From Nitrospirota bacterium (GTDB taxonomy: Bacteria > Nitrospirota > Thermodesulfovibrionia > UBA6902), in the NCBI GenBank assembly GCA_016222905.1, contig JACRPZ010000005.1, positions 142 through 64,141 on the forward strand: a stretch of DNA of 64,000 nt, given 5' to 3'. The notes beneath the pieces are model-generated. The model was not told the origin of the DNA. It was given only the letters and a program-made list of their open reading frames with translations, and did not search any database. Numbering within the stretch: position 1 is the first letter of the stretch; every line of letters starts with the position of its first letter. The position numbers and the translations under genes were made by a program. Shown here one piece after another: positions 5,157 through 51,884 of the stretch.

Positions 5157-5968
5157 TGAAAAAAGTCAGAAGTCAGAAGTCAGAAGTCAGAAGTTTTAAA
5201 AACATTTTCCTAACAGCTTTCATTATATTTTTGGGAATGATAATGACGGGAACAAAGGCATCAGCGGAATTGACGATAAAGGCAAACCATGACGATATAA
5301 AGATAGACTTCTTCTATAACGGCAGTACCGTGTCTGTTGCCGGAGACGCTGATTCGGGGACTGACCTGATCATTAAGATAGCATCTCCGGAAGGTCACGA
5401 GATACTTAAACAGAAAGGAAAAGTGGCGGGCCTTTTGTGGATGAATACCGGAACATTAAATTTTGAACATACGCCGAACCTCTATTCCATTTACAGCACA
5501 AAAAAGATTGAAGACATACTTAGCGCAGAGGAAGCGGATAAATATGTGATTGGTTACCCCGCGCTAAGCAGGCAGATGGAAATAGCTCCCGTTTCAACCG
5601 AAGATGAACGGTCAAAATGGTTCAATGAGTTTGTGAAGTACAAGGAATCTTCAAACCTTTACACAACTTCTTCCGGCAAGATATTGACCACGGCAAAAGA
5701 CGGCAAACAGGCGTACTATATCCTTACAGCATGGCCTTATCAGGCCCCTCCGGGAGATTATCTCGTCACCGTATATGCGGTTAAGGATAAAAAGGTCATC
5801 GAGAAAGCAGAGTCAAAGGTAATGGTAGAACAGGTTGGCGCTGTAAAGATGCTTGCCGGAATGGCAAAAAATAACGGCGCTTTATACGGGGGCATATCCA
5901 TAATGGCGGCGCTGGCTGCGGGATTCGGAGTTGGCATGATATTCAGAAAAGGTGGAGGCGCGCATTAA
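5156..5968 (+). CDS. Hypothetical membrane-anchored/secreted protein; start overlaps the TauE stop (TAATGA)
   Basis: K/R-rich N-region then hydrophobic h-region (FLTAFIIFLGMIMTG...ASA), C-terminal TM. Contains the heptamer repeat at codons 3-12. Confidence 0.6.
   Translation: MKKVRSQKSEVRSFKNIFLTAFIIFLGMIMTGTKASAELTIKANHDDIKIDFFYNGSTVSVAGDADSGTDLIIKIASPEGHEILKQKGKVAGLLWMNTGTLNFEHTPNLYSIYSTKKIEDILSAEEADKYVIGYPALSRQMEIAPVSTEDERSKWFNEFVKYKESSNLYTTSSGKILTTAKDGKQAYYILTAWPYQAPPGDYLVTVYAVKDKKVIEKAESKVMVEQVGAVKMLAGMAKNNGALYGGISIMAALAAGFGVGMIFRKGGGAH
5164..5191 (+). repeat. Heptanucleotide tandem repeat (GTCAGAA)x4 inside coding sequence
   Basis: Exact 4 units, read directly. The unit length is not a multiple of 3. 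Confidence 0.9.
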
Positions 5969-5970
5969 TT

Positions 5971-6828
5971 ATGTATAAGAAAATATTAGTAGGCTTTGAT
6001 GATTCGGAACACAGCAAGGCGGCGCTCATAGAGGCTTCTAACTGGGTCAAACGGCATGGCGGTTCTGTTATTCTTGCCCACGCTGTCTTTTTTGATCCTG
6101 AGGAGTTTGGAATTGCGCCCGTCCAGTTAGAGAAACGTCTGAAAATAGGTGAAAAAATATGTATTCAAACAAAAGAGATGTTGACTTCCGAATTCGGCAT
6201 AGAAGTGCAATCCCTGCTCTGCGAGGGAGATCCTCCAACGGTCATAGTTGACATTGCAAGAGAAAAGAAAGCGGATCTTGTAATGCTGGGCACATACGGA
6301 AGAAAGGGCCTGAACAGACTGCTCATGGGCAGCGTTACATCGCAGGTTGTTGTAAATTCACCGGTTGATGTGCTTGTGGTGAAAAAACCGTGTACCGAAT
6401 GCACGGGTGAATATAAATCCATTTTAGTCCCATTTGACGGTTCACCGTCCAGCCAAAAGGCATTAGAACGCGCCTGCCATCTGTCAAAGATTGATAATGC
6501 CGAGATAAAGATCCTGTATGTTATTCCCCGTTATGAAGAAATGGTGGGCTTTTATAAAAGCAGCTCAATAAAGAAGAGTCTTTTTCAGGAGGCGCAGAAG
6601 ATCATTGATACCGCAAAGGTAATAACCTCAAAGCTTGGAGTCTCTGTAAAAGATGAGATACAGGAAGGAAATGCGGCGGAGAAGATCGTAGAGACCTCAA
6701 AGAAACTTAAAAACGATTTGATAGTCATGGGAAGTTACGGATATACAGGCGTTAACAAGGCGATCATAGGGAGCACCGCTGAAAGGGTGATAACCAATGC
6801 CGCCTGTCCGATACTTGTGGTGAGGTGA
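5971..6828 (+). CDS. Universal stress protein, tandem UspA domains
   Basis: Two USP domains with G-x2-G-x9-G-S/T-like segments (MLGTYGRKGLNRLLMGSVT; MGSYGYTGVNKAIIGSTA). Confidence 0.85.
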   Translation: MYKKILVGFDDSEHSKAALIEASNWVKRHGGSVILAHAVFFDPEEFGIAPVQLEKRLKIGEKICIQTKEMLTSEFGIEVQSLLCEGDPPTVIVDIAREKKADLVMLGTYGRKGLNRLLMGSVTSQVVVNSPVDVLVVKKPCTECTGEYKSILVPFDGSPSSQKALERACHLSKIDNAEIKILYVIPRYEEMVGFYKSSSIKKSLFQEAQKIIDTAKVITSKLGVSVKDEIQEGNAAEKIVETSKKLKNDLIVMGSYGYTGVNKAIIGSTAERVITNAACPILVVR

Positions 6829-22222: not shown

Positions 22223-22297
22223 TGGTGGGCGATGCTGGTTTCGAACCAGCGGCCTCTGCTGTGTGAGAGCAGCGCTCTCCCCCTGAGCTAATCGCCC
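22223..22297 (-). tRNA. tRNA-Val (anticodon CAC)
   Basis: Minus-strand cloverleaf GGGCGATTAGCTCAG...GGTTCGAAACCAGC...CCCACCA, with anticodon loop CTCACAC. Confidence 0.85.
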
Positions 22298-29184: not shown

Positions 29185-29261
<77 letters not shown>

Positions 29262-29336
29262 TGATAATTGCAGATTTTACAGATTTAATTTATTATATAT
29301 CTGCGCAATTATAAATCCGGGAACTGAATTGAAATA

Positions 29337-29412
29337 GGGGGTGTAGCTCAGCTGGGAGAGCGCCTGGTTTGCAACCAGGAGGTCATCGGTTCGATCCCGT
29401 TCACCTCCACCA
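29337..29412 (+). tRNA. tRNA-Ala (anticodon TGC)
   Basis: GGGGGTGTAGCTCAGCTGGGAGAGC...GGTTTGCAACC...GGTTCGATCCC...CCA. Confidence 0.9.
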
Positions 29413-29471
29413 TAATTTAAATTTGCAATTTTGTTGCATTTAATGTTAAGGTATTTCACTTCGAAAAGATT

Positions 29472-29587
<116 letters not shown>

Positions 29588-29600
29588 TTAATTATTAATA

Positions 29601-37023: not shown

Positions 37024-39981
37024 ATGAATAACCACGCTTTTCTTCAACGATACTTGGCTGAAAAAATAACCCATCAAAAAATGGCTGGGTCTCTGTCAAG
37101 ACTTTCCTCTGTTCTTGCAAAAGCCTCTATCGAATTAAATCCTTACCAGATTTATGCGGCTCTCTATGCTTTTAATAGTCCTCTTCAGCGGGGAGCAATA
37201 CTTGCTGATGAGGTTGGTCTTGGCAAAACAATTGAAGCAGGCATTATTATTTCACAGCTTTGGTCTGAGGGAAAAAGAAGGATATTGATTATTACACCAG
37301 CATCTTTGAGAAAACAGTGGCAGGATGAGCTTTCAAATAAGTTCGGGCTTAATTCAGAAGTTTATGACGGTCCTTCTTTTACAGAAAAAATTAATAACGG
37401 GGAAAGAATCCCGTTTACCTATGAAGGGGTTTTTATAGTCTCGTATCAATTTGCCTATGCGCGTGCCGGGTTAATTGAAAAACAGCCGTGGAATGCAGTA
37501 TTCATTGATGAAGCACACAGAATGCGTAGAGTATATAGAGGACGGGATGCGTCAAAGATGGCATATGAAATAAGAAGAATTATTTCTGGAAAACCCAAGG
37601 TATTACTAACAGCAACACCTCTGCAAAACAACTTGATGGAGCTTTATGGGATTGCCAGTTTTATTGATGATAAGCTTCTTGGTACACCATATAGTTTTAA
37701 AACACGTTTTGTTGATCCTCTTTCAGAAATTAACGAATCAAACAGTGGAAGACTCAAAGAATTAAGAATCTTAATTAAAGGAGAAGACAGCGAAAGTCAA
37801 ACAAGTATCTCAGGAATCTTAACAAGAACGCTTAGAAAAGACGTGCTTGAATATGTACGCTTTACTGCCCGCAAGTCAATGACATTTGATTTCACGCCTT
37901 CAGATGAAGAAGTTGAGCTTTACGAAAAGGTTTCCTCGTACCTCCAGCGAGATGAAGTTGCAGCGATCAAAACAACACAGAGAAACCTAATGATACTTGT
38001 TTACAGAAAGCTACTTGCAAGTTCTTCCTTTGCGATAGCCGGAACCCTGAAGAAGCTGATTGAAGCATTGGAAAAAGAATTAAGTCTCAGAGCTAAAGAA
38101 GATACTTATCAGGATAGCACAGCATTTACTTCAGAAGAAGTGGAAGATGAAGGGATAGAGGAAGAGCTTGAAGAATCCGAACTCGACATGGCTGAACAAA
38201 TACAAAAAAAAGAAAAGCCGAGAATTAATCGGGAAAAGTTCAGTAATGAAGACATTCAGAAAGAAATAACCGAATTGAAAAGCTACTACGATCTTGCGGT
38301 ATCAATCGAGAAGAACAGCAAGGGCGATGCCCTGATTAGGGCGCTTAAATCAATGTTCAATTTAGCAAGAGAAAAAGGTTGGCCACAGAAGTCTGTTATA
38401 TTTACAGAGTCGAGAAGAACGCAGGAATACATAGCCGGTATCTTAAAAGACAATAATATAACCTATACTTTATTTAACGGCTCGAATGCTTCATCGGATG
38501 CAAGGTTGTCTTATGAGAAGTGGGGGAAGGAGTTCCCTGAGTTTGCGTCGTCCGGTTCTTTCTCAGCAAACATGAGGCAAGCTCTGGTGCATAATTTTGA
38601 AAAGAGTTCGCAGATCTTATTGACAACTGAGGCTGGCGCTGAGGGATTAAATTTGCAATTCTGCAATATAGTTATCAACTACGACTTGCCGTGGAATCCG
38701 CAAAGAGTTGAACAGAGGATAGGAAGATGTCACCGTTACGGGCAAAGATATGAAGTTCTTGTTTCCAATTTTCTTAATACAAGAAATAGGGCTGATAGAC
38801 GCCTTCTTGAGCTTCTTCAAAGTAAGCTGAATCTGTTTGACGGACTATTCGGGTCTTCGGATGAAATTCTCGGCGCTCTCGAATCGGGAATTGATTTTGA
38901 AAGAAGAATACTTGAGATATACCAATCATGCAAAACGCCGGAGGAGATAGATGCAGCTTTTGACACCCTCCAGGAATCCCTGCAGGGCAAGATATCTGAC
39001 AACATATTAAAACTTAGGTCGTATCTCACGGAATTTGATGAGTCCGTTAAAGGTCTTTTTAAAAGAACAAAGTTCGATATGGAGAATGCCTTGTCTGAAT
39101 TAGACAATGATCTTGTAAGATTATGCGATCTGGCCCTTGACCACGGAATAAAGAAGACAGACAATGATGGCGTATACGAAATATCCTGCAATGGCGATAA
39201 GCATCTGATGGCCTTTCGTAATTTAAAAGAAGATGAGATAGGCAAAATTCCACGCGCTCATAGAGAACATCCTGTCTTAAATAAAATAATAAATGAATCC
39301 TTATCTATTGAAACAAACCCGATACCATCAATTGTTTTTGATTACTCCAGCGCCAATAAAAAAATATCGCAATTAGAGTCTTTATTGAACAAAGATGGAT
39401 TCATGTTTCTCTTTAAACTTAAGGTGAATGGAATAGAAACAGAGGATATCCTTGCACCACTTTCATTTATTAAAGAGAAAAAGGAATTTAAGCCTCTTGA
39501 TCTTCCGACAGCAAATCAGGTACTTTCTCTTAATATTTCAAAAGATGCATGTTTTGACGCAATATCAGAGCTTCCATTTTCAAGAGAAGAACTTTTATCA
39601 TACTGGAACAACTGGAAGTCTCAGTCCCTGGAGATTTACCAGAAAAAAAATGAACGGCTCTATGACAGGGAAATAGACCGGATAAACCGTTATTATCAGG
39701 ACTATTCATTAAAGGTTGATGATAAAATTGCTAAACTGGAAAAGGAATTATCCGAGTTCAACAGAAAGAGAGATAATTCAGCAGACCTTGCCGAGCGAAG
39801 AGACCTGCATAAGAAGATTCAGAAACTGGGGCTTGATATTGAAAAGTTGCGGATAGAACAGATAAAGCTTAAGGAGGAGGCCTTTACGAAAAAACAGAAA
39901 GACCTCGAAGAACTTGAGATAAAATTTGAAATTGCAACGGAAGAAAAAATGATAGCCATAACACATTTTAGAATTATATGA
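37024..39981 (+). CDS. SNF2-family helicase/ATPase with an uncharacterised ~400-aa C-terminal extension
   Basis: Motif I DEVGLGKT, DEAH box FIDEAHRMR, TATPLQNNLMELY, helicase-C motifs TEAGAEGLNLQ and QRVEQRIGRCHRYGQ. Confidence 0.9.
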   Translation: MNNHAFLQRYLAEKITHQKMAGSLSRLSSVLAKASIELNPYQIYAALYAFNSPLQRGAILADEVGLGKTIEAGIIISQLWSEGKRRILIITPASLRKQWQDELSNKFGLNSEVYDGPSFTEKINNGERIPFTYEGVFIVSYQFAYARAGLIEKQPWNAVFIDEAHRMRRVYRGRDASKMAYEIRRIISGKPKVLLTATPLQNNLMELYGIASFIDDKLLGTPYSFKTRFVDPLSEINESNSGRLKELRILIKGEDSESQTSISGILTRTLRKDVLEYVRFTARKSMTFDFTPSDEEVELYEKVSSYLQRDEVAAIKTTQRNLMILVYRKLLASSSFAIAGTLKKLIEALEKELSLRAKEDTYQDSTAFTSEEVEDEGIEEELEESELDMAEQIQKKEKPRINREKFSNEDIQKEITELKSYYDLAVSIEKNSKGDALIRALKSMFNLAREKGWPQKSVIFTESRRTQEYIAGILKDNNITYTLFNGSNASSDARLSYEKWGKEFPEFASSGSFSANMRQALVHNFEKSSQILLTTEAGAEGLNLQFCNIVINYDLPWNPQRVEQRIGRCHRYGQRYEVLVSNFLNTRNRADRRLLELLQSKLNLFDGLFGSSDEILGALESGIDFERRILEIYQSCKTPEEIDAAFDTLQESLQGKISDNILKLRSYLTEFDESVKGLFKRTKFDMENALSELDNDLVRLCDLALDHGIKKTDNDGVYEISCNGDKHLMAFRNLKEDEIGKIPRAHREHPVLNKIINESLSIETNPIPSIVFDYSSANKKISQLESLLNKDGFMFLFKLKVNGIETEDILAPLSFIKEKKEFKPLDLPTANQVLSLNISKDACFDAISELPFSREELLSYWNNWKSQSLEIYQKKNERLYDREIDRINRYYQDYSLKVDDKIAKLEKELSEFNRKRDNSADLAERRDLHKKIQKLGLDIEKLRIEQIKLKEEAFTKKQKDLEELEIKFEIATEEKMIAITHFRII

Positions 39982-41015
39982 ACTCAGTAATAGAAAAAAG
40001 GAGAAAACAGGATTTAGGCATATTTTACACAAGGCCTGAAATTGTGGATTTTATCTATGACATACTCCTTGTCTGGAAAGAGAAAGAGGATAAGGATGCC
40101 AAACGATGGGAGTTGCACAAACCCAAGCATTACCCATCAGTTATTGACCCAACTTGCGGTGAGGGGATCTTCTTAAAGAAAGCCATTGAAAGGAAATTCA
40201 CAAAGGCTGATTGGGTTTTTGGGATGGATATAGATGAAGAAGTTGTTAATAGATGGCCAAGTATCAACCTTCTCGAGGCATTCGGTAATGATGAGGCGAA
40301 ACTGAAAGCGCACTTCTTTCATCAAAACGGTTTGCTGCCGATTGAGTGGGAACAACACAAAGGCCTGTATTATGGAAACCTCAAAAAAGAGGATATCAGG
40401 AACGGACAGTTTAATCTTGTAACCGGAAACTTTCCCTATGGCGGAATTGGCGTGGATTTCTCAAATCATCCGACTCCGGAAGGACGGAGGCTATTAGATT
40501 CACTGCGCACTTTTCGGATATTCAATTATAAAAACAAAAAAAGAAATAATGGGAATAATGGAAATAAGCCTGTGAATGGGTTGTTTGATGCCCTTGTTTC
40601 TGAGCCTTCTTCTTCTTATTCAATCGTAAATCCAAAAGAAGCGGAGTCTATGCCGATAGAGGTTTTGTTTATAGAAAGGTTTATTCAGTTATGCAAAGAC
40701 GGAGGATGGATAGCAGTAATAATCCCTGATGGCATATTGGCAAATTCCAATATGCAATATGTGAGAGAGTTTATTGCTGATAACACAAAAGTTGAGGCAA
40801 TAGTTTCCCTTCCACGAGACGCCTTCAAGCACGTGGGCACATCAGCAAAGACAAGCATTCTGTTTCTGAAAAAGAAGAAAATGGAAAATCTTAACTATCC
40901 TGTTTTCCTTGCGTCTCTGAACAAGATGGAAGAAAAAGGACTGAAAATAATATCAGAACAATATGAGGAGTTTTATTATGAGTCAAAACTTAAACACATC
41001 GAAGACAGTTTATGA
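39978..41015 (+). CDS. Gamma-class N6-adenine DNA methyltransferase (HsdM/Eco57I-like)
   Basis: Motif X GIFYTRPEIV, motif I DPTCGEGIFL, motif IV-like GNFPYGG, and the C-terminal GGWIAVIIPDGIL...SLPRDAFK...TSILFLKK region. Its ATG overlaps the SNF2 stop (ATGA). Confidence 0.85.
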   Translation: MNSVIEKRRKQDLGIFYTRPEIVDFIYDILLVWKEKEDKDAKRWELHKPKHYPSVIDPTCGEGIFLKKAIERKFTKADWVFGMDIDEEVVNRWPSINLLEAFGNDEAKLKAHFFHQNGLLPIEWEQHKGLYYGNLKKEDIRNGQFNLVTGNFPYGGIGVDFSNHPTPEGRRLLDSLRTFRIFNYKNKKRNNGNNGNKPVNGLFDALVSEPSSSYSIVNPKEAESMPIEVLFIERFIQLCKDGGWIAVIIPDGILANSNMQYVREFIADNTKVEAIVSLPRDAFKHVGTSAKTSILFLKKKKMENLNYPVFLASLNKMEEKGLKIISEQYEEFYYESKLKHIEDSL

Positions 41016-41796
41016 AAATGATTTTATTATGGTAAGAGTTGATAAGACTCTTAAAGAAATGATGGAGGAGAAACCATCGAGTAGATGGGATCCAGGTTAT
41101 TGGGAGCCAAAATATGATCAAGTACTTTCGCAGATAAGCAAAACTTATAAAATTGACCCCCTTAGAGAATTGCTTTCGATTCCCATTATTGCCCCTGACC
41201 ATGTTCGAGCAAGTAAAGGTGAATATATAGGTAAAAAGTACTCGTGCGAATATAGAACATTAAAGGATTTATTATTTACAGGGTTAAATTATGCAAATAT
41301 TAATTATTGTTCTGATAATGCATTTCAACGCTTGATACGGTCACAGCTTCAAGTTGGTGACATTCTTTTCGCAGGTTCAGGCATCGGTGCCATTGGTCGT
41401 GTTGGGTTCGTTGATAAAGTTTCAAAAAAATCATGTGTTGGAGACTTATTTATTATTCGAGAACCTAAAATCAATAATTATTATTTATATATTTTTCTTT
41501 TATCTCTATTTGGACAGGCTCAAATTGAAAAAATCTATCACGGAATCCAATCAGCAAAAATAAGTACACCAGAAATTGCGGAAATAAAGATAGTATTAAT
41601 CCCAAATAAAGTTCAAAAACACATCGAAATAGAATACAAAAAAATGGCTTCTCATCATGATAAAGCTATGGAAGCCAAGGCTAAAGGCAGTGATACAGGG
41701 TACAAAAAAAACATCGAAATTGCAGAGGCAATGTTGAAGGACTTGATTGCTAAGACTGAGACAGTAATTAGGGGTGAGCAGGAGGATATTATTTAA
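40978..41796 (+). CDS. Restriction-modification specificity (S) subunit-like protein, single target-recognition domain
   Basis: Size and composition of a half-HsdS/BcgIB-like TRD with a coiled-coil C-terminal region. RBS GAGGAG sits 8 nt upstream of ATG 40978. Overlaps the MTase 3' end. Confidence 0.6.
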   Translation: MSQNLNTSKTVYENDFIMVRVDKTLKEMMEEKPSSRWDPGYWEPKYDQVLSQISKTYKIDPLRELLSIPIIAPDHVRASKGEYIGKKYSCEYRTLKDLLFTGLNYANINYCSDNAFQRLIRSQLQVGDILFAGSGIGAIGRVGFVDKVSKKSCVGDLFIIREPKINNYYLYIFLLSLFGQAQIEKIYHGIQSAKISTPEIAEIKIVLIPNKVQKHIEIEYKKMASHHDKAMEAKAKGSDTGYKKNIEIAEAMLKDLIAKTETVIRGEQEDII

Positions 41797-43595
41797 TGCC
41801 GAATCGCTCTGAAGATTCCTATATAGTTCATGACATTATTCCCTTATTATCCAAACTTGGTTATCCGGGTACAGGAGATCATGAAAGAGTCAGAATTAAG
41901 GATGTACCGATATATCGTCCGGGCGGTGGTAAAGCCGGCGCAATGGACATAGTGTATTATCATAATGACGAACCGGTATTGCTTGTTGAAGCAAAGAGAG
42001 AACATAAGACACACGAAACTGCTCTTTCCCAGGCACAGAATTACCTCAAAAACTTCCCGGTAAAATATAAAAAATATGCTGCATCAGGCAGAGCGCCTTT
42101 ATATGTTGCCACCACAGTTGGCAGGGAAATAAAGTTTTACAGAAATCGCTACGAGATTGTTGATGATCAGATAATACAGACTGCCGAACAGGTTGAAATC
42201 TTACCCTTTGATGAATTGCTTACAGAATATGGTCTTACATCTGGATACAAAGCTAAGCCTCTTGATGCCGAATTATTCAGAAGAGATTTCATCCCGGAAC
42301 TGGTATCTGTGTATAACGTTTCAGAAGATGGCAGAATAACGCCGGATGTTATAAAAAAAGTCTCAAGCCATATACTAAACTATCTCGAAAACCGGCACAC
42401 TTATGACACCCGGTCACCCTTTGTTGAGCTTAAAAAAGCTCTTTTCAGGCAGGAGCACATCAAAGACCTTCACAGACGTTTTGATTTAATAAACTCATTA
42501 GGCCCTGATATTGCCGAGCAGTTCAGAAGTTTTATTTTAAGATCATTTCAGGGGAATGAATTTAATCAATATCTTACTGAACAGTGCATCATTGCTTTCA
42601 TGTTTGACCTGATTGGAGAGGTAAAAAGCAAATGGAAGGTTCTTGACCTTGAGTGTGGGAGCGGCGGTTTTCTGTCGGCAGCAGCCAAAAAAAATATTCC
42701 TTTAGAAAATATGCTGGGCGTTGATATTGACAGCCTTCCTTTCACAATCGCTACAACGTATCTTGCATTATATTTTTCTAAAACAGGGAAAGAAATTTCC
42801 CAAATACCTGTAAAAGAGACTAATGGATTATTTTATTTAGGCGATGACTGGGATTTGGTTGTCGGCAATCCTGCAGGAAGTCATCAATACGAAAGAGGCA
42901 ATTTAGAAGATGTTTTAAAAAATCTTGAACGGGATATTAATCAGGACGGCAGAGATGATAAATTTTCTGAATATAATTTTTCTGTTCAGCAGGCTGTAAG
43001 GTCATGTAAGGTTGGCGGGAAACTTTGTCTGTTTCTTCCAGAAGGTTTCTTCTCTAACTCTCAGGATGAATTCTTAAGGAAGTATGTTGCCAAATACTGC
43101 CGAATTCTGGCGATTGTTAGTCTGCCAAGAGGTGTTTTCAAAAAAGGCACTTCAACTAAAACAATCAACACAGGCAGTCAAGGCTCTTCACAGAAAATGT
43201 CAATTCTTTATGCCGAGAAAATCAGGGCCGTCAAAGATGGAGAAGGCATTGAGATTGATAAAATAAAGCTCGAATATCCTGTCTTCTTAGCCAACATATC
43301 CAAGCCCGAATCAACAGCAGGTGAGATAAGCAACTGGCTTGAACCAAGACTTCGCCTTGTATTAGAAGAATGGAGAAGCTGGCAAGATAAAAAGGAATTC
43401 GTGGAGTTAGATGAATCCCTATTGAAGGAAGCGTTTGATACTTCAAAGGCAGCTAAGAAAACAAAAAAATCTAAAAAAGAGGATATGCAAATGGAACTAA
43501 TATTGGACGAACCTATTGCAAGCAAAAAGCCCAAAACCGTCAGCACAGAAATCAGTATAAGCGAGAGCCTAGATAAATTGTTTAAAAAGAGATAG
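41796..43595 (+). CDS. Type IIB (BcgI A-subunit)-like protein: N-terminal PD-(D/E)xK nuclease domain fused to an HsdM-like MTase domain with degenerate catalytic motifs
   Basis: The D...EAK motif (MDIVYY...LLVEAKRE) is nuclease-like. MTase motif I is LDLECGSGGFL and the C-terminal region is GGKLCLFLPEGF...SLPRGVFKKGTSTKT. However, motif IV reads GNPAGS (not NPPY/F) and motif X reads QYLTEQ. Its ATG overlaps the S stop (TAATG). Confidence 0.75.
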   Translation: MPNRSEDSYIVHDIIPLLSKLGYPGTGDHERVRIKDVPIYRPGGGKAGAMDIVYYHNDEPVLLVEAKREHKTHETALSQAQNYLKNFPVKYKKYAASGRAPLYVATTVGREIKFYRNRYEIVDDQIIQTAEQVEILPFDELLTEYGLTSGYKAKPLDAELFRRDFIPELVSVYNVSEDGRITPDVIKKVSSHILNYLENRHTYDTRSPFVELKKALFRQEHIKDLHRRFDLINSLGPDIAEQFRSFILRSFQGNEFNQYLTEQCIIAFMFDLIGEVKSKWKVLDLECGSGGFLSAAAKKNIPLENMLGVDIDSLPFTIATTYLALYFSKTGKEISQIPVKETNGLFYLGDDWDLVVGNPAGSHQYERGNLEDVLKNLERDINQDGRDDKFSEYNFSVQQAVRSCKVGGKLCLFLPEGFFSNSQDEFLRKYVAKYCRILAIVSLPRGVFKKGTSTKTINTGSQGSSQKMSILYAEKIRAVKDGEGIEIDKIKLEYPVFLANISKPESTAGEISNWLEPRLRLVLEEWRSWQDKKEFVELDESLLKEAFDTSKAAKKTKKSKKEDMQMELILDEPIASKKPKTVSTEISISESLDKLFKKR

Positions 43596-43758: not shown

Positions 43759-44298
43759 ATGGAAATCAAAATAAACAAAGGCATATTATCATTGGTTGAA
43801 GGAGATATAACAAAGCAGAGTACGGATGCGATAGTAAATGCCGCGAATAAAAGTCTCCTCGGCGGAGGCGGTGTTGACGGGGCAATCCATAGGGCTGGGG
43901 GGCCCAAGATACTTGAAGAATGTATAAAGATAGGCGGCTGCGAGACTGGCGAGGCGGTAATTACAACAGGCGGGAATCTTAAAGCCAAATACGTTATTCA
44001 TACGGTTGGCCCAATATACAGAGATGGACTTCACAATGAGCCTAAACTACTTGATAATGCTTACCGGAACTGTCTGAAACTCGCATCATCAAAAGGCATA
44101 AAGAGTATCGCGTTCCCTTCAATAAGCACAGGCGCATACAGGTATCCGCTTTCCGATGCCGCAGAGATTGCGCTAAAGACAGCGGTCGAATATCTAAAAG
44201 AGCATACGGATATTGAATTGGTGCGCTTTGTTCTTTTCGGGCAAAAGACCCTTGAGGTTTATGAGAAGGTATACGCCCTTATTTCAACTGATCACTGA
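43759..44298 (+). CDS. Macro-domain protein (O-acetyl-ADP-ribose deacetylase, YmdB-like)
   Basis: VNAANKSLLGGGGVDGAIHRAGG and GNLKAKYVIHTVGP macro-domain signatures. Confidence 0.85.
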   Translation: MEIKINKGILSLVEGDITKQSTDAIVNAANKSLLGGGGVDGAIHRAGGPKILEECIKIGGCETGEAVITTGGNLKAKYVIHTVGPIYRDGLHNEPKLLDNAYRNCLKLASSKGIKSIAFPSISTGAYRYPLSDAAEIALKTAVEYLKEHTDIELVRFVLFGQKTLEVYEKVYALISTDH

Positions 44299-44716
44299 CC
44301 GCCTTATTTAAGGCATTCTGCGCTTTTATAAGTTTTTTATATTTTGACTCTGTTTTTGCCATGTTTTTTGAAATCACTGCTTTTAGCAGGTCCCCCTCGA
44401 TTTCAGCAACATCGAGCCGTTTGTAGTAATCCATTGTCTCATTAAGATGTGCAATAACTATCTTGCCTGTCAGGATCGGATGATTGTTGGTCACATTTGC
44501 CTCTTCATACATTGTTCCATGCTCAAGCTCAACTTCCAGCCCCTGCATAAAATCTTCAAGAGGGACCCTCATCTTCTTTGTATTCACGATCTTAAGGATC
44601 CTGGATGCTTCAGCTTTTGATACAGTCGGCTTTTTTATTTTAGACCAGTCCCTGAAACCCAACTCCTTACATACCCTCCTTACCTCAGCGGCCGTAACAT
44701 ATTCCGGTAATTCCAT
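44279..44716 (-). CDS. Hypothetical protein
   Basis: ORF with coding-like composition. Family not recognised. Confidence 0.5.
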   Translation of the reverse strand: MELPEYVTAAEVRRVCKELGFRDWSKIKKPTVSKAEASRILKIVNTKKMRVPLEDFMQGLEVELEHGTMYEEANVTNNHPILTGKIVIAHLNETMDYYKRLDVAEIEGDLLKAVISKNMAKTESKYKKLIKAQNALNKAVSDQLK

Positions 44717-46618: not shown

Positions 46619-46921
46619 ATGAAATTAAATTGTTGGGAGTTTAAGAAATGCGGGAGAGAAGTGACCGGCGCACATGTGATTGAATTTGGGGTATGTCCGG
46701 CGTGTGAAGAAAAAAAACTTAATGGTATTCACGACGGTACTAACGGGGGCAGGGCCTGCTGGGCAATTGCAGGAACCATGTGCGGCGGAAAGGTGCAGGG
46801 CACTTACGCAGAGAAGGAGAAGAACTGCCAGATCTGTGATTTTTATAAATCAGTGCAGAAAGATGAGTTCGGCAAATTTCATATGATAATGGAACTGCGG
46901 AAGATGTTAGGCCATATTTGA
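46619..46921 (+). CDS. Small cysteine-rich protein (10 Cys; CWEFKKC, CPAC, ACWAIAGTMCGG, CQIC)
   Basis: ORF with an RBS (aacggaggtcttgtctaATG). Likely metal-binding. Family not assigned. Confidence 0.5.
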   Translation: MKLNCWEFKKCGREVTGAHVIEFGVCPACEEKKLNGIHDGTNGGRACWAIAGTMCGGKVQGTYAEKEKNCQICDFYKSVQKDEFGKFHMIMELRKMLGHI

Positions 46922-51550: not shown

Positions 51551-51695
51551 ATAAAAAACCGTATCCCTTGGTATTGAACCTAAAGGAATACGGTGAATGA
51601 TTCTTCATCCCTTTCCTCCGCCGGCATTATCCGGTTCAGGTTCGCGGGGTCTTCCCGAAACATCGGGAACTCTCAGGCTAATGCCTCCCCCAGGG
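51551..51695 (-). ncRNA. TPP (THI-box) riboswitch with terminator-type expression platform
   Basis: Minus strand reads GGGGAGGCATTAGCCTGAGAGTTCCC...GACCCCGCGAACCTGAACCGGATAATGCCGGCGGAGGAAAGGGA (aptamer). A CCGTATTCC...GGATACGG + T-run terminator follows at 51551-51600. A TTGACA-N18-TATACT promoter lies upstream at ~51704-51733. Confidence 0.85.
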
Positions 51696-51884
51696 TATTT
51701 AAAGTATATCTTCTCTCATAGAAAAGTGTCAACGATAAGAGAAAAGTCCCGCTGTTAGACTTTTGGGATAAGCCGTGCTACATTGTATAATTAACAATTT
51801 CATTGATTCCCTGAAGTCCGTGCCTATTTTTACTTCTTAAGGAAGGTCTAAACTGTAAACGCTTTTAGTGATTTCTTTACCTTA

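Follow-up and report, generated by a model that had tools for sequence, protein, structure and literature searches.

The stretch of DNA analyzed here (the window) comprises 64,000 nucleotides of contig JACRPZ010000005.1 from a Nitrospirota bacterium, and contains four overlapping genes on the forward strand that encode, in order, a SNF2 helicase, a small γ-class DNA methyltransferase (MTase), a specificity (S) subunit and, last, a fusion of a nuclease with an MTase-like domain whose catalytic motifs are altered. The helicase stop codon overlaps the start of the small MTase gene, and as read from the sequence the four genes are translationally coupled and form a single restriction-modification (RM) cassette. 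An earlier note on this DNA had drawn a picture of two proteins, the small MTase and the fusion, and had called them adjacent; it omitted the helicase and the S subunit, and the S gene in fact lies between the two. The coordinates of all quoted motifs were confirmed by translating the window. The genes of the cassette are:

37024-39981, forward strand: SNF2 (RapA/DrmD/BrxHII-like) helicase, 985 amino acids (aa), with Pfam, NCBIfam and PADLOC matches
39978-41015, forward strand: stand-alone γ-class N6-adenine MTase, 345 aa (Pfam N6_Mtase, 2.2e-17; Eco57I)
40963-41796, forward strand: half-size S subunit, up to 277 aa (NCBIfam MAD5, 1.7e-12; PADLOC Specificity_I, 3e-13)
41796-43595, forward strand: nuclease-MTase fusion, 599 aa (R~γM with an altered M moiety; Pfam HSDR_N, 3.4e-7; N6_Mtase, 3.9e-13, covering aa 246-456)

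The 599-aa fusion is the predicted restriction (cutting) subunit. The four catalytic residues of its nuclease domain are invariant columns in the homologue alignment, and the fusion is laid out as follows:

41796-42200, forward strand: PD-(D/E)xK nuclease domain, aa 1 to ~135, with the catalytic set E6, D51, E65 and K67
41946-41996, forward strand: nuclease residues D51...E65-A-K67, a D-x13-EAK pattern that recurs across loci
42564-42581, forward strand: NQYLTE, aa 257-262, at the motif X position, replacing (G)xFYTP (hhalign)
42642-42674, forward strand: LDLECGSGGFL, aa 283-293, motif I (the loop that binds S-adenosylmethionine, SAM)
42867-42890, forward strand: N358-P-A-G-S-H-Q-Y365, aa 358-365, at the motif IV position, with no aromatic residue at position 4
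43413-43592, forward strand: Lys-rich disordered tail ending in the helix motif [IV][SND]xxLxx[LI][FL] (ISESLDKLF)

All of the strings that the earlier note had quoted are present, including the retained motif I and the replacement of NPPY/F by NPAG and of YTP by YLTE. The register of the altered motifs is fixed by two alignments. When a profile of 117 fusion homologues is aligned by hhalign with a profile of 29 small-MTase orthologues (probability 99.8%), GNPAG falls beneath GNPPY and NQYLTE beneath GIFYTP; and in a profile search of PDB sequences the SNPPF of BsaXI falls on the same columns as the NPAG of the fusion. No (D/N/S)PP(Y/F/W) motif was found elsewhere in the 599-aa protein, so that the sequence result named in the earlier note as one that would refute it is not seen. 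An 'NPPY' string present in two family members was considered as a hidden motif IV and rejected, as it lies at residue 206 in the helical linker, outside the MTase fold. The AlphaFold2 (AF2) model of the fusion (predicted local distance difference test, pLDDT, 80.4; predicted template modelling score 0.80) consists of a nuclease domain, a helical linker, a Rossmann MTase fold and a C-terminal helix, with low confidence in the loop 363-365 just after NPAG, in the loop 450-464 and in the tail 550-589. The best Foldseek matches of this model are BsaXI, BpuSI, HsdM proteins, DrdV, PacII M and MmeI, the RM protein of BsaXI ranking first (E 9e-16) and BpuSI fourth.

The altered motifs are shared by a whole family. 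Hundreds of fusion homologues exist, and among the 120 best of them motif IV reads NPAG in 114 and NPSG in 3, with a Tyr at position 8 (counting from the Asn) in all 117 of these; the same signature is present in each of the 35 genome loci, the most distant of them at 38% identity. Motif X is kept as NQY(L/M)TE, motif I (family form DFECGSGG) is invariant in 9 of its 10 columns across the 117 homologues, and N358, P359, G361, Y365, Asp310 of motif II and N343-x-L345 of motif III are invariant or nearly so. By per-domain statistics the best-conserved region of the fusion is the MTase-like core (aa 255-500), in which 49 of 246 columns are invariant and the mean entropy is 1.05 bits, compared with 19 of 135 columns and 1.21 bits in the nuclease domain. 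The motifs had been called degenerate in the earlier note, and its wording for the domain was a dead scaffold; neither term suits a signature shared by 117 of 120 homologues or the most conserved region of the protein. The pattern reads as a particular derived pocket kept by purifying selection and not as decay, and the conserved core, the invariant motif I and Asn-Pro pair and the fixed Tyr8 together point to a predicted ligand-binding pocket that is functional and not a relic. In M.TaqI the N6 amino group is held by hydrogen bonds from the side chain of the Asn and the main chain of the Pro of NPPY (PMC3874165), and the retention of both N358 and P359 in the fusion therefore fits a pocket still able to receive adenine. 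Loss of methyl transfer by this domain is nevertheless plausible. The aromatic of motif IV in PacII helps to build a cage round the flipped base, and methylation is lost in APPA mutants (PMC9613975, PMC5100572), so that a missing aromatic would be expected to matter.

Representative proteins were searched exhaustively for relatives of the fusion, and when these were aligned to the family hidden Markov model they fell into three nested groups:

Family of the window: motif IV NP(A/S)G; Tyr at position 8 in 117/117
Sister clade (~500-590 aa, nuclease plus MTase-like domain): motif IV NPPG in 37 and NPPA in 11 of 51; Tyr at position 8 in 42/48
Third group (HSDR_N_2 + N6_Mtase + MmeI_Mtase): motif IV NPPF in 19/20; position 8 variable

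The gene neighborhoods of these groups differ. Fusion genes of the window's family co-occur with a separate γ-MTase gene carrying GNPPYGG and with a half-size or fused S, one orphan (L019) aside. In each of the three sister-clade loci examined a separate GNPPYGG MTase gene lies immediately upstream; in L123 its product is fused to S and in L125 to a DprA-like domain, and in L124 a gene for a 273-aa S comes next. In contrast, each of the two loci examined that encode NPPF proteins has just two genes, one for an RM protein and one for an S (471 or 455 aa), and lacks a further MTase gene. A fusion without the motif IV aromatic is thus accompanied by a canonical MTase encoded separately and by an S of half size, a correlation whose NPPF side consists of two loci and which supports a division of labor between the proteins. 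The earlier note had proposed such a division, in which the small MTase methylates and the fusion cuts. This part of its proposal gains from the comparison, since separate NPPY MTases accompany the aromatic-less fusions and none accompanies the NPPF proteins; the description of the MTase-like domain as a dead scaffold is not supported. A metagenome scan with an alignment of the NPPG clade returned mostly generic γ-MTases, the nuclease part being covered only in L043 and L044. A literature search, in which the gene name NPPA swamped the matches, found neither this cassette nor a motif IV of the form NPxG described. The sister-clade MTase of L125 (928-3885) carries its DprA-like (DNA_processg_A) domain at the N-terminus.

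The small MTase is predicted to be, and most likely is, the protective methylase of the cassette. Its orthologues carry GNPPYGG, DPxCGEG and FYTP. The window protein has IFYTRPEI and an N-F-P-Y motif IV (40428-40439, forward strand; TTT codon at 40431-40433), and the strings FYTRPEIV and NFPY given for it in the earlier note are correct; however, NFPY is not the normal state of this motif but a singleton, as the 28 other orthologues all read GNPPYGG. Two assemblies from independent read sets (L040 and L041) contain the same NFPY protein, so that NFPY is no assembly error, and because the nuclease and helicase genes look intact, NFPY is probably tolerated. N-x-P-Y is catalytically competent in the Erm/KsgA rRNA adenine MTases.

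The S subunit, of ~272-277 aa, probably starts at 40978 or 41029. Its AF2 model (pLDDT 87.8) has one target-recognition domain (TRD) at ~60-212, followed by a long antiparallel pair of helices (a helical hairpin, 215-240 and 244-269), and by Foldseek it matches halves of the S subunits of PacII, BsaXI and EcoKI, that of PacII best. S is the most divergent gene of the cassette, as expected of a specificity determinant. M-S gene fusions occur in several loci (L003/L018:6407-8146, L123:5380-7011 and L030:6400-7971). These features of S bear on a scaffold explanation, according to which the MTase-like domain of the fusion binds neither SAM nor a flipped base and serves purely to attach the nuclease to the M-S complex, comparable to the second HsdM in M2S or to METTL14 with METTL3. 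In its favor, the only TRD of an S that has its own helical hairpin would be taken up by the real MTase, M and S are fused in some loci, and in PacII a single S serves two different M-type subunits (PMC9613975). The explanation is nonetheless quite improbable, because the nine invariant columns of motif I, Asp310, N343-x-L345 and N358-P359 are conserved far beyond the needs of a scaffold, in a core that is more conserved than the nuclease domain itself.

The helicase has intact ATPase motifs (GLGKT65, DEAH162 and QRIGRCHRYGQ564). It matches SNF2-rel_dom (1.3e-31) and Helicase_C in Pfam, RapA (3e-44) and DrmD_b (NF038318) in NCBIfam, and DrmD (1e-185) and, over aa 510-961, BrxHII in PADLOC; the architecture of DrmD/RapA/BrxHII-like helicases has been described (PMC12839542). 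Its gene lies upstream of the cassette in 19 loci. In seven others (L008, L013, L022, L024, L031, L034 and L038) only M, S and fusion genes are found, with no SNF2 gene, and the fusion, at 526-563 aa, is without the Lys-rich tail. In the window protein the tail is modelled with pLDDT <50 for aa 550-589 and ends in a short helix (590-596). Among the non-redundant loci with enough upstream sequence, 19 have both tail and SNF2 gene, 7 have neither, none has an SNF2 gene with a tail-less fusion, and one tailed fusion is an orphan (L019); the association is significant by Fisher's exact test (p=9e-6, kinship ignored). In a neighbor-joining tree the loci with neither tail nor SNF2 gene fall into at least four separate lineages. 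In L030 a decayed C-terminal SNF2 fragment with an internal stop (5393-6391) precedes the M-S fusion and a tail-less fusion protein, which looks like joint loss of helicase and tail caught midway. From this co-occurrence and co-loss we infer that the tail is a helicase-docking element. The orphan at L019 (3743-9782), which is without M, S or SNF2 genes, lies beside genes for an AlbA_2-like regulator and for a 970-aa protein in which an amino-MTase and a C5-cytosine MTase appear to be joined. In L003 a DUF3800 gene is inserted ahead of the fusion gene.

The helicase matches also raise the question of whether the cassette is an RM system at all, or instead a piece or a modified form of DISARM, BREX/BR or MADS whose proteins have other roles. 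The best helicase matches are indeed to DrmD and BrxHII models, and both MTase-type proteins and S weakly match MAD2 and MAD5. The scores, however, are far below the cut-offs (DrmD_b 613 bits against 950; MAD2 96 and 54 against 720; MAD5 47 against 400), and the cassette is self-contained, its flanks being unrelated housekeeping genes. Neither the window nor the related loci contain genes like DrmA, DrmB or DrmC, although DISARM would require DrmA, DrmB and DrmC/DrmE, and the other mad genes of MADS are likewise absent. BREX type 3/BR is defined by a BrxC or DUF499 ATPase and PglZ or BrxXI, together with a BrxHII-type helicase (PMC12839542); the neighborhoods contain no DUF499, BrxC or PglZ gene, and only the helicase is BrxHII-like. 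ARMADA systems (DISARM-related arrays) are centred on YprA/DrmA helicases, which are absent here. A role outside restriction is thus very improbable, the least credible of the explanations considered.

These observations lead to a reading of the cassette that is held with moderate confidence. The small γ-MTase and the single-TRD S would write a protective N6-methyladenine mark. The MTase-like domain of the fusion, having lost the motif IV aromatic, would no longer be a protective methylase and would have been kept under strong selection as a SAM-binding module. It would dock on the same S and engage the target site, most plausibly by probing the flipped target adenine, and would thereby position and license the PD-(D/E)xK nuclease on unmethylated DNA. 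The C-terminal tail would recruit the SNF2 translocase as an ATP-driven motor, in the manner of HsdR in Type I systems, and the helicase-less, tail-less relatives presumably cut locally. On the same reading, and with the same confidence, the cassette would descend from machinery of the BcgI-like (Type IIB) and Type I kinds. A more specific version is possible but tentative: the aromatic-less SAM-binding fold would be a 'reader' that flips the adenine and hydrogen-bonds its N6 through N358 and P359, cannot methylate it, senses its methylation state and so licenses the nuclease, with the tail recruiting the SNF2 translocase.

Several points weigh against this reading. The members of the family are known from metagenome-assembled genomes alone, and the NPPF contrast comes, as noted, from two loci. 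Where M and S are fused (L003, L030 and L123), the route by which the fusion protein would reach S may be a difficulty. The remaining points concern methylation itself. Tyr8, fixed in the aromatic-less clades, could structurally replace the missing aromatic, in which case the domain might still methylate, and a displaced aromatic has a precedent in the same fold: lmo1582 (PDB 2f8l), an uncharacterised class I MTase of Listeria, reads D-L-P-V-G-Y-Y at the place of fusion aa 355-365. Eco57I and BpuSI, moreover, keep an active MTase in the RM protein despite companion MTases (PMC3874165), so that a companion MTase alone is no proof of inactivity.

The latter points are also the case for an active fusion, which like Eco57I or BpuSI would both cut and methylate, the latter through a rearranged motif IV (NPxG-xxx-Y), Tyr365 swinging in to stack on the flipped base, with the small MTase partly redundant or complementing the other strand. 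Tyr8 is prevalent exactly where the aromatic is missing (117/117 with NPAG or NPSG, 42/48 with NPPG or NPPA) but variable in the NPPF relatives, N358, P359 and motif I are invariant, and the loop that carries Tyr365 is flexible in the model. Nevertheless, the loss of the aromatic correlates perfectly with the presence of a separate NPPY MTase, and the NPPF relatives are without one; in the window's family the second Pro of motif IV has gone as well, and motif X has changed from FYTP to YLTE. We know of no active amino-MTase with Gly or Ala at position 4 of motif IV, and a search of the literature found none. Continued methylation by the fusion is accordingly judged unlikely, although better founded than the scaffold explanation, and a fusion that restricts through a SAM-binding module remains the preferred reading.

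Many lineages have genes in the order SNF2-M-S-fusion between unrelated flanks, among them Nitrospirota, the candidate phyla radiation (CPR), Omnitrophota, Planctomycetota, Gammaproteobacteria, Actinomycetota, Elusimicrobia and Nitrospinae. All members come from metagenome assemblies, where they are annotated merely as 'N-6 DNA methylase', and a tblastn search of annotated plasmids returned no member but only distant generic MTases. In the window, G+C is 0.376-0.385 over positions 38001-42000 (the cassette) versus ~0.42-0.46 around it, which is consistent with horizontal acquisition. In a bin labelled as a Methanosarcinales archaeon (L010, contig CAZIEE010000120.1), M, S and fusion are 68-76% identical to those of the window, reflecting either cross-domain transfer or a binning error.

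The cassette is flanked in the window by an ABC-2 permease gene on one side and a Macro-domain gene on the other. The latter (43759-44298, forward strand; Pfam E 3.7e-48) lies directly downstream, and the cassettes of L040 and L041, which are from the same population, are likewise followed by a Macro gene, but those of other lineages are not; convergent with it is a gene for a DUF5661 protein (44279-44716, reverse strand). Further along, a 100-aa Cys-rich open reading frame with several CxxC-like pairs (46619-46921, forward strand), for which there is no Pfam match, adjoins a thiC gene, and a thiamine pyrophosphate (TPP) riboswitch (67.6 bits; 51596-51701, reverse strand) lies upstream of minus-strand genes for thiamine biosynthesis. 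A 5S rRNA and two tRNAs are encoded at 29185-29588 (forward strand) and another tRNA at 22226-22297 (reverse strand).

In classical Type I, IIB, IIG and ISP systems a single MTase domain both writes the protective mark and reads the status of the target, a coupling that lets phage DNA occasionally escape when it is methylated by the restriction complex itself. The cassette appears to split writing and reading between paralogous proteins, and to enlist a motor of the chromatin-remodeller type through a short tail. If this is true, it would offer a natural MTase fold turned into a sequence-specific sensor without modification, a clean system in which to define what an MTase domain contributes to restriction, and a modular toolkit of nuclease, S and motor. 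Hundreds of genes now called 'N-6 DNA methylase' in CPR, Nitrospirota, Omnitrophota and other metagenome-assembled genomes could then be annotated as probable restriction subunits. If the reader version also holds, the split between writer and reader would be hard-wired, and the cassettes, with and without the motor, would form a previously unnamed RM class that is widespread among uncultivated bacteria.

Comparison with known systems begins with Type IIB. Like BcgI and BsaXI, the fusion has an N-terminal PD-(D/E)xK domain, a helical linker and a γ-MTase fold, and it is accompanied by a separate HsdS-like S; the RM protein of BsaXI is its best match in the PDB in both sequence and fold. In systems of the BcgI type the RM subunit carries NPPF/Y and methylates both strands, S has two TRDs, the subunits assemble as 2RM:1S and there is no accompanying MTase (PMC3874165), which is also the arrangement of the NPPF relatives. 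Unlike these, the cassette has NPAG in place of a canonical motif IV, a separate gene for a γ-MTase of the NPPY family, an S with one TRD whose ~272-277 aa compare with the 455-471 aa of the NPPF relatives, and an SNF2 helicase. With Type I the cassette shares a list of parts, namely an HSDR_N-type nuclease, a superfamily 2 (SF2) motor, a γ-MTase and an HsdS-like TRD subunit, and the restriction complex probably still binds SAM. However, Type I combines nuclease and SF2 motor in one polypeptide, whereas here the nuclease is fused to an M-like protein and the motor is a separate protein of the RapA/DrmD type and not HsdR; S is of half size, and of the two different M-type proteins one lacks the catalytic aromatic. 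Scores against Type I models are correspondingly low (30.7 bits against a threshold of 242.75 for hsdM, TIGR00497; 16.9 for S against a cut-off of 662, NF007278). In Type ISP the nuclease, helicase, MTase and TRD reside in a single polypeptide, and this assignment was rejected for the four separate genes found here.

The cassette resembles PacII (M1M2S) in having two paralogous M-type subunits alongside a single S. The PacII subunits carry NPPF and NPPY and both methylate, giving N6-methyladenine and N4-methylcytosine (PMC5100572, PMC9613975); unlike the fusion they thus keep their motif IV aromatics, and neither is joined to a nuclease. The Type IIG systems Eco57I and BpuSI likewise pair an RM fusion with a stand-alone γ-MTase, but their RM protein has its own TRD and an active NPPY MTase. 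The small MTase and S resemble the 'Type 1 1/2' methylase M.AhdI, which combines M with a half-size S (2M+2S in AhdI; PMC3874165), although the nuclease of AhdI is an unrelated Type II enzyme; and Eco57I, BpuSI and AhdI, unlike the cassette, have no SNF2 partner. Finally, the concept of an MTase-fold subunit that assists recognition or assembly and leaves catalysis to a partner is familiar from METTL14/METTL3 and from the Mod protein of EcoP15I. METTL14 carries EPPL as its motif. In the Type III enzyme EcoP15I the non-catalytic Mod protomer supports the other (PMC4490356). These proteins belong to unrelated families, and the EcoP15I protomers are identical, whereas here two genes are involved and one product is fused to a nuclease. 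Taken with the sequence evidence above, the cassette is best classed as a variant of RM machinery already known, derived from Type IIB, in which writer and putative reader are split and an SNF2 motor is present or absent.

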